Shown here: positions 10,924 to 63,388 of the stretch, piece after piece
Numbering within the stretch: the stretch's first letter is position 1
How the letters are laid out: every line of letters begins with the position of its first letter
DNA from: Escherichia coli 042
GTDB taxonomy: Bacteria > Pseudomonadota > Gammaproteobacteria > Enterobacterales > Enterobacteriaceae
DNA length: 64,000 bases
Strand: one strand, 5' to 3'
Assembly: GCF_000027125.1 (NCBI RefSeq)
Contig: NC_017626.1
Notes under the pieces: model-generated
The model's database searches: none
What the model was told of the DNA's origin: nothing
What the model saw: only the letters and a program-made list of their open reading frames with translations
Translations under genes and position numbers: made by a program

Positions 10924-16987
<6,064 letters not shown>

Positions 16988-30682: not shown

Positions 30683-32379
30683 TGTAGACGCTCCCATTCC
30701 AGAGAGTCTAATGTCGGTTCAACTTTAGCCCGAAAATCAGCTAGTTGATCAGGATCCTGCTTCTCGAGTAGATAACTGAATTGACGAGAGCAATTGCTTA
30801 TCCAGTCTCGTGTTTCCGCCAGGGTGAGTTGATAGAGATTATCAAGACGGGCAATAAAGGCCTGGTTTATCTGTTCATCGCGTGGGTGAATTTTTAACAG
30901 GCTTAATTTGGACAACGACTGCTGTATTTGTTCTGCCGTTAATGCCCCTGGGTTCTGTTCAATAACCAGACTATTTTTAGCCCCTGTCAGTGGCACGCTG
31001 ATATCGACATCAAGAATACCGTTAATGTCGTACGTAAAACGAACATCAATACGCACATTACCGGCCGGTTTTGGCGGAACATTCACTGACAACTCCGCAA
31101 GGAAAATATTATCACCCACCATCCTGCTTTCACCCTGGTAGATTTTAAAATTAACCTCTGTTTGTTGATCATGTGCCGTATAAAAGGCACGAACGCGACT
31201 ACAAGGAATACTTCGGTTACGCTCAATAACGGGTGCAAAATAGCCTGATTCGCGGGTATGCCCCAGCGATTTAGAGGTATCAACGCCAAGTGTATAAGGG
31301 CAAACATCGGTCACTACTACATCTTGTAATTCGCTGTGCCGCGCTTTAAGTGCGGCCTGAATAGCCGCGCCCTGAGCAATGACTTCATCCGGGTTTAAAT
31401 GCATTGCCGGTATACGACCAAAAAGTTGTGTCACAAGTTTGCGAATCAGCGGCATACGTGTAGTGCCACCCACAAGAACAACCTGGTCTAATTGGCTAAT
31501 ATTAATTTTTGCATCGCGAATTGCCCGTTCCAGTGGCATACGGATTCGCTCGAAAAATGCCTGTAATAAAAATTCAAATTTTTCTGTGGTCAGATGCCAG
31601 TAATATCGCCTTCCTTCAATCTCCACACTGAAAGTTGCTTCGTCACGCATACTAAGCACGCGTTTGACACGCTCAGCCTCAATGCGTAAATGGCGTTGGA
31701 GTGTCGGTTCACGCCATTCAATATTTTCAGGAAGATCCATACGTGAGCAATATGCATCGATCAGGATATCGACAATATCTTCACCACCTAAAAAGTTATC
31801 CCCGGCACTGGCTCGTACTTCCATAATATTGTCAAACAACTCCAGTATGGAGATATCAAACGTACCACCACCTAAATCGAATACCAAAAATTGATGTTCA
31901 TCATCTTTATTATGCAAACCATACGCCAGTGCAGCGGCGGTTGGTTCGTTAATTAAACGTTCGACGTTTAAGCCTGCCATTGAAGCTGCCAATTTTGTTG
32001 CTTTGCGTTGCACATCACCAAAATAAGCAGGTACGCTAATTACTGCTTCTGTTATCTCTTCACCTAAATAGCTTTCAGCATCATCTTTTAGCTGACGCAG
32101 TATCAGCGATGAGAGTTCCTCTGCCCGAAATTCACGTCCGCCCAATTTAAACGTCTTTGATGTGCCCATCATGCGTTTAAAATTGGCTGCACAGTTTTGT
32201 GGTTTGATGAGTTGCAGGTCACGAGCTGCCTCCCCTGTCAAAACCATACCATCTTCGTCAACACAAACTACGCTGGGTGTTAAAAACTTGCCTAACGCAT
32301 TGGGGATCAGTTCACTTTGTCCATTTCGCCATACCGCTGCCAGACTGTTAGTCGTCCCGAGGTCAATACCGATAATCAT
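30679..32379 (-). CDS. Hsp70-family ATPase, HscC-like
   Basis: ORF track 30679..32394 (TTG) trimmed to ATG at 32379 with AAGAGGA Shine-Dalgarno. Hsp70 motifs present: IGIDLGTTNS (phosphate 1), FDLGGGTFD (phosphate 2), VLVGGTTRMP (adenosine), beta-sandwich substrate-binding region VTDVCPYTLGVDT; about 566 aa, shorter than DnaK. Confidence 0.75.
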   Translation of the reverse strand: MIIGIDLGTTNSLAAVWRNGQSELIPNALGKFLTPSVVCVDEDGMVLTGEAARDLQLIKPQNCAANFKRMMGTSKTFKLGGREFRAEELSSLILRQLKDDAESYLGEEITEAVISVPAYFGDVQRKATKLAASMAGLNVERLINEPTAAALAYGLHNKDDEHQFLVFDLGGGTFDISILELFDNIMEVRASAGDNFLGGEDIVDILIDAYCSRMDLPENIEWREPTLQRHLRIEAERVKRVLSMRDEATFSVEIEGRRYYWHLTTEKFEFLLQAFFERIRMPLERAIRDAKINISQLDQVVLVGGTTRMPLIRKLVTQLFGRIPAMHLNPDEVIAQGAAIQAALKARHSELQDVVVTDVCPYTLGVDTSKSLGHTRESGYFAPVIERNRSIPCSRVRAFYTAHDQQTEVNFKIYQGESRMVGDNIFLAELSVNVPPKPAGNVRIDVRFTYDINGILDVDISVPLTGAKNSLVIEQNPGALTAEQIQQSLSKLSLLKIHPRDEQINQAFIARLDNLYQLTLAETRDWISNCSRQFSYLLEKQDPDQLADFRAKVEPTLDSLEWERLQ

Positions 32380-61385: not shown

Positions 61386-61889
61386 ATGACTGAAATGGCT
61401 AAAGGAAGCGTGACGCATCAGCGGTTAATCGCTTTATTATCACAAGAAGGTGCTGACTTCCGCGTCGTTACCCATGAAGCGGTAGGTAAATGTGAAGCGG
61501 TGTCAGAAATTCGTGGCACCGCTTTAGGCCAGGGGGCTAAGGCACTGGTATGTAAAGTCAAAGGCAATGGTGTAAATCAACATGTTCTGGCGATCCTCGC
61601 GGCCGATCAACAGGCCGATCTGAGCCAACTCGCCAGCCATATAGGCGGATTACGCGCTTCGTTGGCCAGCCCGGCGGAAGTCGATGAACTCACAGGCTGT
61701 GTCTTCGGCGCGATCCCCCCTTTCAGCTTCCATCCAAAACTCAAACTGGTTGCCGATCCCCTACTCTTCGAACGATTTGATGAAATCGCCTTCAATGCAG
61801 GCATGCTGGATAAATCCGTTATTTTGAAAACCGCGGATTATTTGCGCATTGCGCAACCAGAACTGGTCAATTTCCGACGCACTGCGTAA
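61386..61889 (+). CDS. yeaK: YbaK/ProX-family aminoacyl-tRNA deacylase-like protein
   Basis: 167 aa ORF. Confidence 0.8.
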   Translation: MTEMAKGSVTHQRLIALLSQEGADFRVVTHEAVGKCEAVSEIRGTALGQGAKALVCKVKGNGVNQHVLAILAADQQADLSQLASHIGGLRASLASPAEVDELTGCVFGAIPPFSFHPKLKLVADPLLFERFDEIAFNAGMLDKSVILKTADYLRIAQPELVNFRRTA

Positions 61890-61994
61890 CTAGCCTGTCC
61901 GTTCGATAAGAAGAACGGACAAAACCAGCACAACAGCAATGGCAAAAAACGATGACGTGATAATCAGTGTCTCGACGAACATTTGATCGTTCAT
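61890..61994 (-). CDS. yoaI: Small membrane protein (34 aa)
   Basis: Hand translation of the minus strand gives [34 protein letters not shown] followed by TAG; below the 60 aa cutoff of the ORF track; stop abuts the yeaK stop. Confidence 0.7.
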
Positions 61995-62163
61995 AGTATG
62001 CCCCCGGGAGATAGCTGTTTTCACGTTATTGTTAGCGTGCACAAATTGCAGTTTGATGACAGTTCGCCTGATTTTTTATGCAAAAAACGTAAAGATTTTC
62101 TACTTCCTTCCTGCAGCAAGCGTAAAGTAAGCAGGCTTATTATTCTTTGGCAAGGAAACCACG

Positions 62164-62610
62164 ATGTTTGATGTCACTTTGCTGATCCTGCTCGGGTTAG
62201 CTGCGCTGGGCTTTATCAGTCATAACACCACTGTCGCCGTTTCAATTCTGGTGTTAATCATTGTCCGCGTCACACCGTTAAGCACCTTTTTCCCGTGGAT
62301 TGAAAAACAGGGGCTAAGTATCGGGATAATCATTCTGACGATTGGCGTTATGGCCCCCATCGCCAGCGGGACGCTACCGCCCTCAACCCTGATTCACTCG
62401 TTTCTGAACTGGAAATCGCTGGTGGCAATTGCAGTAGGCGTTATTGTCTCCTGGCTAGGTGGGCGCGGCGTGACGTTAATGGGCAGCCAGCCGCAACTGG
62501 TCGCCGGGCTGCTGGTGGGCACTGTTTTGGGCGTGGCGCTGTTTCGCGGAGTACCGGTTGGCCCGCTTATTGCCGCGGGTCTGGTTTCGCTGATTGTGGG
62601 GAAACAGTAG
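62164..62610 (+). CDS. yeaL: DUF441-family inner membrane protein
   Basis: 148 aa hydrophobic ORF. Confidence 0.85.
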
Positions 62611-63388
62611 TTAATCCCGCAATATATCGGCCTGGCGTTTGCCCCAGGCCTTTCTTAAACATAGTAATAAAGGCCGTTGTTGAATCATACCCCAGCGTAT
62701 GAGCAACTTTCTGTACAGTATCGCCTTTCACTAATCCCTGAAGCGCCATAATCAGCTGTAACTGCTGACGCCACTGGCGAAAACTCAACCCCGTCTCTTT
62801 CACTATCAGTCGGGCAAGATTGCGTTCACTCATCGCAAAAAAGCGAGCCCATTGCCCCAATGACCCCCACTCGACGGGCTCTTTCGCCATCATCTCCACC
62901 ATCGCGCGAATTTTAGGATGAGAAGAAACGGGTAGGTGCAGCTGTTGTTGTGGCTGCTGAGGGAGTTCATCAAACAGGACCTGAATTAATCTGCGGGTCA
63001 TCGGCTCAGCACGCTGAGTCGACGTTCTGTTTGCCAGGGTTAAAATTAATTCCCGGCATAAGGGCGATATTTTCAATGTGCAACAGGTTGTCGGCATTGT
63101 CACTGCGCTGGGTTCGATAAACAGAAAACAGAGTTCAGCGTTAGCTGTCACTTGATTGCTATGTTCCACCCCGCCCGGTATCCAAACCGCATATTGCGGT
63201 GGCACCATCCACAAAGCATTTTCCACCGTACAGGTAATTGCACCATGTAGCGCCAGTATCAGCTGTCCTTTGCGGTGCTGATGTACAGGACTGGTTAACT
63301 CATCCGTTCCGGCGTGAATACAAAATGCGACCGCGGCTTCATGGTGTCGGTCGGGTTCATAGCCATTGAGATTCAACCTGTGCATCAT
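62567..63388 (-). CDS. yeaM: AraC-family transcriptional regulator
   Basis: 273 aa ORF; cupin-like N-terminal region and C-terminal AraC-type HTH; 3' end overlaps yeaL by 44 bp in convergent orientation. Confidence 0.85.

Follow-up and report, generated by a model that had tools for sequence, protein, structure and literature searches.

The convergent genes yeaL and nimR of Escherichia coli 042 share the last 44 bp of their coding sequences, and our analysis suggests, with a probability that we put at about three in four, that this overlap arose neutrally, as a side effect of how tightly the two convergent genes are packed, and is not a device. Both genes lie in a 64,000-nucleotide stretch of contig NC_017626.1, referred to here as the window. 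According to the list of open reading frames, yeaL occupies positions 62164–62610 of the plus strand and encodes a DUF441 inner-membrane protein of 148 amino acids, ending in the stop codon TAG at 62608–62610; nimR (formerly yeaM) occupies 62567–63388 of the minus strand and encodes an AraC-family regulator of 273 amino acids, ending in TAA at 62567–62569. The tail-to-tail overlap given by these coordinates, 62567–62610 on both strands, covers codons 135–148 and the stop codon of yeaL, and codons 260–273 and the stop codon of nimR. As read from the sequence, positions 1, 2 and 3 of the yeaL codons face positions 1, 3 and 2 of the nimR codons; this phase (123:132) is the commonest in convergent overlaps of E. 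coli, where it makes up 46% of those longer than 4 bp (PMC2174442).

The two are genuine protein-coding genes on opposite strands sharing 3' nucleotides, since both have full-length family matches, nonsynonymous differences in YeaL lie far below synonymous ones, and NimR has been characterised experimentally. YeaL matches Pfam DUF441 over the entire profile (1–139 of 139; E = 2.7e-44) with its residues 7–145, and with a match that reaches residue 145 of 148, the overlap sits within conserved YeaL sequence. In NimR, residues 22–148 match AraC_binding/Cupin_2 and residues 180–255 match HTH_18 (E = 3.4e-19), HTH_AraC being matched as well; the protein thus has the N-terminal cupin-type domain and C-terminal double helix-turn-helix that define the AraC/XylS family. 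In its domain order (cupin/AraC_binding plus HTH_18), its length of 273 residues and its divergent orientation to its target nimT, NimR is a typical member, and its only peculiarity within the family is an unconstrained C-terminal tail of 18 residues, which makes the overlap. NimR is known to be an AraC-family repressor of nimT and of itself, and SELEX returned a single target, the yeaM/yeaN intergenic region, for a regulon of nimR and nimT (PMC5934670).

RefSeq gives the same genes and the same 44-bp overlap for E. coli 7/2 and for two records of K-12, and again at those sampled E. coli junctions that diverge most; over this stretch the window sequence is 99.8% identical to E. coli 7/2 and 97.9% identical to K-12. 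In NC_000913.3, yeaL lies at 1874352–1874798 and nimR at 1874755–1875576 (window coordinates equal K-12 coordinates minus 1812188), and the junction was found in 5407 of 5426 complete E. coli genomes. The initial annotation had described 44 bp common to the 3' ends of a membrane protein gene, yeaL, and an AraC-type regulator gene, yeaM, and both the shared nucleotides (open reading frame coordinates, RefSeq) and the gene identities (Pfam, RefSeq) are borne out, yeaM now being called nimR. The overlap is real, but it is already in the standard annotation, and the pair itself is known: every E. coli record that we examined carries the overlap in its annotation, and the two genes appear in a catalogue of convergent excludons. 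That a wrong gene call or a pseudogene produced the overlap has a negligible probability: a 3' overlap rests on stop codons alone, which are unambiguous in the sequence, the family matches are full-length and to curated families, NimR has an experimentally established function, and YeaL is under strong purifying selection.

The part of NimR that enters yeaL lies outside its DNA-binding domain. HTH_18 ends at residue 255, and Y255 (codon at 62624–62626) is both the last domain residue and the tyrosine of the family's C-terminal ...GxxPxxY motif. Between this codon and the yeaL stop codon, a spacer of 13 nt can be read from the sequence (62611–62623); beyond Y255, NimR continues with residues 256–273, an 18-residue tail encoded at 62570–62623 on the minus strand. 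The 13-nt spacing is maintained across two enterobacterial alignments, with a 1-nt deletion in Salmonella as the sole exception, and in some 60 Enterobacteriaceae species the NimR domain ends approximately 13 nt from the yeaL stop codon, the nimR stop codon alone shifting. A terminator of either gene would not fit into so short a spacer. The tails of NimR orthologs after Y255 range from 2 amino acids in C. werkmanii and 3 in S. arizonae, through 9 in 28 loci, up to 18, and even among species that share the 44-bp overlap, the tail residues are replaced at most positions. From these comparisons the NimR tail appears to be dispensable and free of constraint on length or sequence.

The length of the overlap was followed over 80 enterobacterial loci with close YeaL relatives (81–100% YeaL identity), using one genome per species; lengths were counted from direct translation, and only where nimR abuts yeaL. 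The 44-bp form occurs in E. coli and in 13 Citrobacter-like species, while 28 loci, among them Klebsiella, Raoultella, Enterobacter, Leclercia, Kluyvera, Lelliottia and one Escherichia lineage (L004), share an overlap of 17 bp. Other lengths are 45 bp in one locus (Yokenella), 20–21 bp in four loci, 6 bp in two (Trabulsiella), 0 bp in Salmonella enterica subsp. arizonae, −4 bp in C. werkmanii and −5 bp in five Buttiauxella species. Apparent overlaps of 119–281 bp in Enterobacter, Leclercia, Kluyvera and others were set aside as a tblastn artefact: tblastn runs through the stop codons because antisense yeaL is conserved, and direct translation gives 17 bp. In addition, nimRT is absent beside yeaL in E. 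albertii, E. whittamii and many other genera, and an IS1 insertion parts yeaL from nimR in one E. coli strain.

The alignment indicates how these lengths arise. In the species with 17 bp, yeaL reads TTT ATT, which gives a stop codon on the opposite strand; E. coli yeaL has ATT GTG at that site, and the nimR frame continues for another 27 nt. In the Escherichia lineage L004, the earlier nimR stop codon is due to a change in yeaL from ATT GTG to ATC ATC. The nimR stop codon thus falls wherever antisense yeaL happens to offer one.

We also compared the overlap with chance expectation, keeping the YeaL protein and the 13-nt spacer fixed and drawing synonymous yeaL codons from the codon usage of the window. 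The resampled genes gave a median overlap of 44 bp, and the probability of an overlap of 44 bp or more was 0.62; the observed length is no greater than expected by chance. Among the convergent gene pairs of the window, three of ten overlap in coding sequence (cho–ves by 41 bp, nudG–ynjH by 35 bp and yeaL–nimR by 44 bp), and three others lie 0–8 bp apart (yeaK–yoaI 0 bp, tcyP–ydjO 3 bp, ynjE–ynjF 8 bp). In the 15 loci whose overlap is 44 bp, no nonsynonymous difference was seen over the final 14 codons of yeaL, where synonymous differences amount to 0.338 per codon; yeaL codons 1–120 have 0.350 per codon. Every synonymous change in yeaL recodes the NimR tail, because yeaL third positions face nimR second positions; true dual coding would constrain both frames within the overlap, and only yeaL is constrained. 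The overlap therefore evolves purely as yeaL coding sequence, with the nimR frame there unconstrained. The normal synonymous rate of yeaL and the freely changing NimR tail together lead us to view the overlap as a neutral by-product of tight packing.

It follows that a function of the overlap itself, either through a requirement for NimR residues 260–273 in activity or through selection of dual coding for genome compaction, is very improbable. In its favour, all of E. coli has the 44-bp form and many Citrobacter species share it, but ortholog tails vary from 2 to 18 residues with free replacement, the synonymous rate of yeaL is not depressed, and a median of 44 bp is what chance would produce unaided; we regard this explanation as already largely refuted.

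These features are in accordance with the overlaps by stop-codon mutation described by Lillo & Krakauer 2007 (PMC2174442), which are alike in being shorter than 50 bp, in having the phase 123:132, and in having their length set by the next in-frame stop codon; the phase frequencies of E. coli overlaps fit the stop-codon-mutation model (PMC2174442). The series from 17 bp to 44 bp, once yeaL codons lose the earlier stop, is what this model predicts (PMC2174442). The yeaL–nimR overlap is a textbook case of this kind, with no material difference.

The tight packing does have a consequence for the transcripts. Full-length mRNAs of the two genes are complementary over at least 44 nt, since the stop codon of each lies at the far side of the overlap. 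It had been proposed at the outset that the overlap implies antisense interaction between the transcripts, and that termination upstream of it would refute this; termination upstream would, however, leave truncated genes or messages. Complementary transcripts are thus unavoidable from the coordinates, while the regulatory effect is unsupported, the overlap being neither conserved in length nor selected. Published long-read data (SMRT-Cappable-seq) give a novel operon b1787|b1789, that is yeaK–yeaL, with a transcript that covers yeaL fully, the operon lists including fully read-covered genes only (PMC6131387). Its transcription start on the plus strand lies at approximately 61355 (K-12 1873543, converted by the offset; PMC6131387), and the yeaK–yeaL transcript passes antisense through yoaI. 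Expression of yeaL is weak (one study gives 36 and 67 normalised counts), and nimR is absent from the SMRT-Cappable-seq operon tables searched.

In a terminator scan of the single window sequence, a terminator-like element was found on the plus strand at 62629–62656, beginning 19 nt past the yeaL stop codon and inside nimR codons 245–254. It consists of a 7-bp stem (GGCCTGG / CCAGGCC, with 6 G-C pairs) and a loop of 8 nt, followed by the tract TTTCTT, and its folding energy is −14.1 kcal/mol; a GC-rich stem-loop thus stands directly before a U-tract, shortly downstream of the yeaL stop codon, as in an intrinsic terminator. The GC-rich 7-bp stem, the 8-nt loop and the U-tract are shared with Rho-independent terminators that lie inside a convergent neighbour. 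The candidate is unlike the usual terminators in that it lies within the coding sequence of a conserved helix-turn-helix C-terminus and not in a 3' UTR, and in that it is not bidirectional: a bidirectional terminator was considered and rejected, since the upstream flank AATATATC has no A-tract and the scan returned no terminator-like site on the minus strand. A search of Rfam returned only a sub-threshold match to JUMPstart (E = 0.096), which we treat as chance.

To what extent the element is constrained beyond its protein was assessed in 23 species of Escherichia, Citrobacter and Salmonella, by counting third-position changes on a neighbour-joining tree. The stem codons G247, L248, P252 and G253 show 1, 0, 1 and 1 such changes, and the loop codons G249, Q250 and T251 show 8, 5 and 12, against a mean of 5.3 over 77 four-fold codons in these 23 species; the probability that four random four-fold codons total 3 changes or fewer is 2e-5. 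The stem-breaking variants GGT at G247 and CCT at P252 occur naturally in the Citrobacter loci L012 and L015. In the same 23 species 98.1% of stem cells pair, and K246, whose codon lies where the U-tract starts, is almost always encoded by AAA. We found no compensatory changes or covariation in the stem among the 23 species, the stem being invariant. Codon bias is not the cause of this constraint, because each of the four Gly codons occurs at the loop glycine G249, whereas both stem glycines remain GGC and P252 remains the non-preferred CCA. In 25 species of the Klebsiella/Enterobacter clade, the same amino acids are encoded by freely varying codons (4, 9 and 10 changes), and 63.7% of stem cells pair, which is equal to shuffled controls; the hairpin, if it is a terminator, would thus be clade-specific.

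The stem might instead be a by-product of the AraC C-terminal motif combined with preferred codons and two Dcm sites, so that the hairpin at 62629–62650 would not be a terminator at all, which we think possible but doubtful. The codons of the G-L-G...P-G-R sequence are naturally complementary, and when the codons of the motif were resampled, 12% of the versions were terminator-like and the probability of an energy at or below the observed one was 0.049; a hairpin of this kind is thus favoured by the amino acids of the motif themselves. Furthermore, GGC and CTG are preferred codons in E. coli, the stem shows no covariation, and no 3' end is given at the site in the tables of Adams et al. 2021 or in TERMITe. 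Both stem arms contain a Dcm site (CCWGG), one being CCTGG and the other CCAGG; Dcm sites can be maintained by very-short-patch (Vsr) repair, and they may contribute to the conservation of the stem. They are nevertheless insufficient to explain it, because the third position of G253, which changed only once, lies outside the CCWGG pentamer, and because at P252 an A is chosen over a T, CCA being retained though CCT would preserve the Dcm site too. The by-product explanation is likewise at odds with G249 taking all four Gly codons in the very species where the stem glycines are fixed as GGC, and with the Klebsiella/Enterobacter clade, where the same amino acids come without constraint, as well as with the nearly fixed AAA of K246. 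As the comparative constraint on the stem is much stronger than the effect of the motif, we think it slightly more likely than not that in the clade of Escherichia, Citrobacter and Salmonella, yeaL has its terminator inside nimR. The synonymous-site constraint on this embedded hairpin is the only new detail here.

Published 3'-end data were searched at the junction. There is no entry for a 3' end near K-12 coordinates 18748xx in TERMITe or in the Term-seq and Rho tables that Adams et al. 2021 published, and the SMRT-Cappable-seq tables give the yeaK–yeaL operon with no termination site; expression of both genes is low, so that absence from any of these is uninformative. All that Adams et al. 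2021 list nearby is a Rho-dependent region, placed at 1874225 (+) in the interval from yoaI to yeaL. A rifampicin time series gives a weak plus-strand "Termination" labelled yeaL, at 1872675 in the numbering of that study (adjusted p = 0.016; PMC10349824), an event that we left out of account.

On the minus strand, the untranslated continuation of the nimR transcript would run antisense to yeaL over 62164–62566, where the scan gave no intrinsic terminator. Past the nimR stop codon we found neither a terminator-like site nor a stable structure (folding z-score +0.76), while the first ~150 nt are C-rich and G-poor, with a C/G ratio of 1.45–1.88 at about the 90th–95th percentile of the window. 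C-rich RNA without an intrinsic terminator suggests that termination of nimR is likely Rho-dependent. A small hairpin around the nimR stop codon was set aside, as it is not conserved in Citrobacter.

The pair has been listed as a convergent excludon, one of 165 in MG1655, in Table 1 of the ExcludonFinder study (Sanmartin et al., NAR 2025, PMC12288877), on the basis of being seen in at least 50% of 58 MG1655 RNA-seq sets (PMC12288877). The yeaL–nimR pair is thus itself named among these excludons, and terminators inside the neighbour are likewise described for them, being predicted inside the neighbour's transcription unit in 146 of the 165 convergent pairs (PMC12288877). That study classes pairs by RNA-seq coverage alone, and gives no reciprocal-expression or dsRNA data specific to yeaL–nimR; a classic excludon, in contrast, is defined by mutually exclusive expression, and yeaL–nimR is classed by transcript overlap alone. 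No pair-specific, mutually exclusive or reciprocal expression of yeaL and nimR was found in the literature searched.

One could take the arrangement as a selected regulatory excludon, in which yeaK–yeaL and nimR mutually repress each other by polymerase collision or through RNase III, tying the nitroimidazole response (NimR/NimT) to YeaL. The listing among the 165 MG1655 convergent excludons speaks for this, as do the higher synteny of excludon pairs compared to other neighbours (PMC12288877), the 13-nt packing preserved over many genera, and the embedded terminator, which would guarantee an overlap of ~90 nt in Escherichia, Citrobacter and Salmonella. The listing adds little, however, as any expressed pair with overlapping coding sequences must score, and p19 dsRNA validation is not feasible for convergent excludons according to the authors of that study (PMC12288877). 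Expression of yeaL is low and nimR is missing from the operon tables searched; YeaL (DUF441) and NimR have no known functional link; and nimRT is not found beside yeaL in E. albertii, E. whittamii and many genera, the two genes being separated by IS1 in one E. coli strain. Taken together, we consider a selected regulatory excludon unlikely. Slightly less probable still is a more specific version, where the embedded terminator is held by synonymous selection and enforces the ~90 nt overlap, so that yeaK–yeaL transcription would lower NimR output and thereby tune the de-repression of the nitroimidazole exporter NimT. Given the 13-nt spacing across genera and the synteny of excludons, there may be some selection on the arrangement itself.

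We thus favour the neutral explanation, and suggest the following course of events. Functional NimR would end at Y255, 13 nt from the yeaL stop codon, and its frame would then run into antisense yeaL until the first in-frame stop codon, which in E. coli comes 18 codons on; yeaL alone would dictate the sequence of the overlap. With a spacer of just 13 nt, neither gene can terminate before entering the other. Transcripts of yeaL, including read-through from yeaK–yeaL, most likely stop at the intrinsic terminator in nimR codons 245–254, and a yeaL end at 62629–62656 would bring the complementary stretch to ~90 nt, as judged from the anatomy of the junction and the synonymous-site constraint. Transcripts of nimR most likely end by a Rho-dependent mechanism within C-rich antisense yeaL. 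Any mutual interference would then work via RNA polymerase collision or via cleavage of the duplex by RNase III.

A convergent coding overlap is by itself no evidence for antisense regulation; here, chance stop codons set its length, and one of the two frames is unconstrained. The hairpin within nimR illustrates cleanly how the synonymous sites of a transcription factor gene can be constrained by an RNA structure, in this case one that probably terminates the gene opposite. Should this be confirmed, the hairpin would offer a convenient and easily mutated model for studying whether terminators embedded in a neighbouring gene have a regulatory consequence.

The annotated start of nimR consists of two successive Met codons (MMHRL..., 63383-63388). 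Citrobacter orthologs conserve only the second Met; their first codon is not ATG and encodes L, F, I or V. On this comparison of sequences, translation of nimR may in fact begin at the second ATG (63383-63385). At the other end of the protein, a polymorphism outside the overlap (62615-62617) gives G258 (IAGL) in the window strain versus R258 (IARL) in K-12, which is consistent with an unconstrained NimR tail, the residues that follow the DNA-binding domain.

In E. coli a second hairpin, AUUGUGGGG...CCCGCAAU at 62593-62623 (+), is predicted to extend across the stop codon of yeaL; it is probably fortuitous, because its pairing is not maintained in the Citrobacter sequences compared. A weak Rfam match to JUMPstart at 62370-62399 (-), inside antisense yeaL, is probably due to chance: its 21.5 bits fall short of the gathering score, which is 35, and E = 0.096.

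Upstream of yeaL, the stretch at 61386-62163 holds yeaK (+) and the small gene yoaI (-), with zero spacer between them (boundary 61889/61890). A published yeaK-yeaL transcript (PMC6131387) passes through yoaI in antisense orientation. A published Rho-dependent termination region at K-12 position 1874225 (+) corresponds to about 62037 in the window; the yoaI promoter is strongly PhoB-dependent, its PhoB box lying at about 62039-62056. Convergent coding overlaps are also found elsewhere in the window, between cho and ves (41 bp, 13386-13426) and between nudG and ynjH (35 bp, 30886-30920).

In genera without nimR at this place (yeaL-encoding loci L031, L035, L037-L043, L045, L053, L069 and L077, from Phytobacter, Kosakonia, Cedecea and others), another convergent gene, whose product is a hydrophobic protein, ends only a few bases from the stop codon of yeaL. 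Unrelated genes are thus repeatedly packed tightly, in convergent orientation, against the 3' end of yeaL. In four other yeaL loci (L005-L008: the record 'E. coli' SCPM-O-B-8794, Escherichia sp. E1V33, E. whittamii and E. albertii) there is no nimR-nimT just after the yeaL stop, and nimRT therefore behaves as a variably present two-gene module. Here yeaO follows on the same strand as yeaL, about 80-95 bp past its stop, and no obvious terminator was found in the yeaL-yeaO interval of these four loci. A nimR remnant is seen in Escherichia sp. MOD1-EC7003 (L003:2473-2560), where an internal deletion has joined the 3' end of nimR, as far as the first arm of the hairpin, to the codons that run backwards from about residue 42; the yeaL that adjoins this remnant is intact.

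In E. coli 23CRST051, an IS1 element sits exactly in the yeaL/nimR junction (L089:748-1445), and both 3' ends are altered, yeaL being 501 bp and nimR 840 bp long. The insertion physically uncouples the two genes, and this strain, with its IS1-split yeaL/nimR pair, is a natural test strain.
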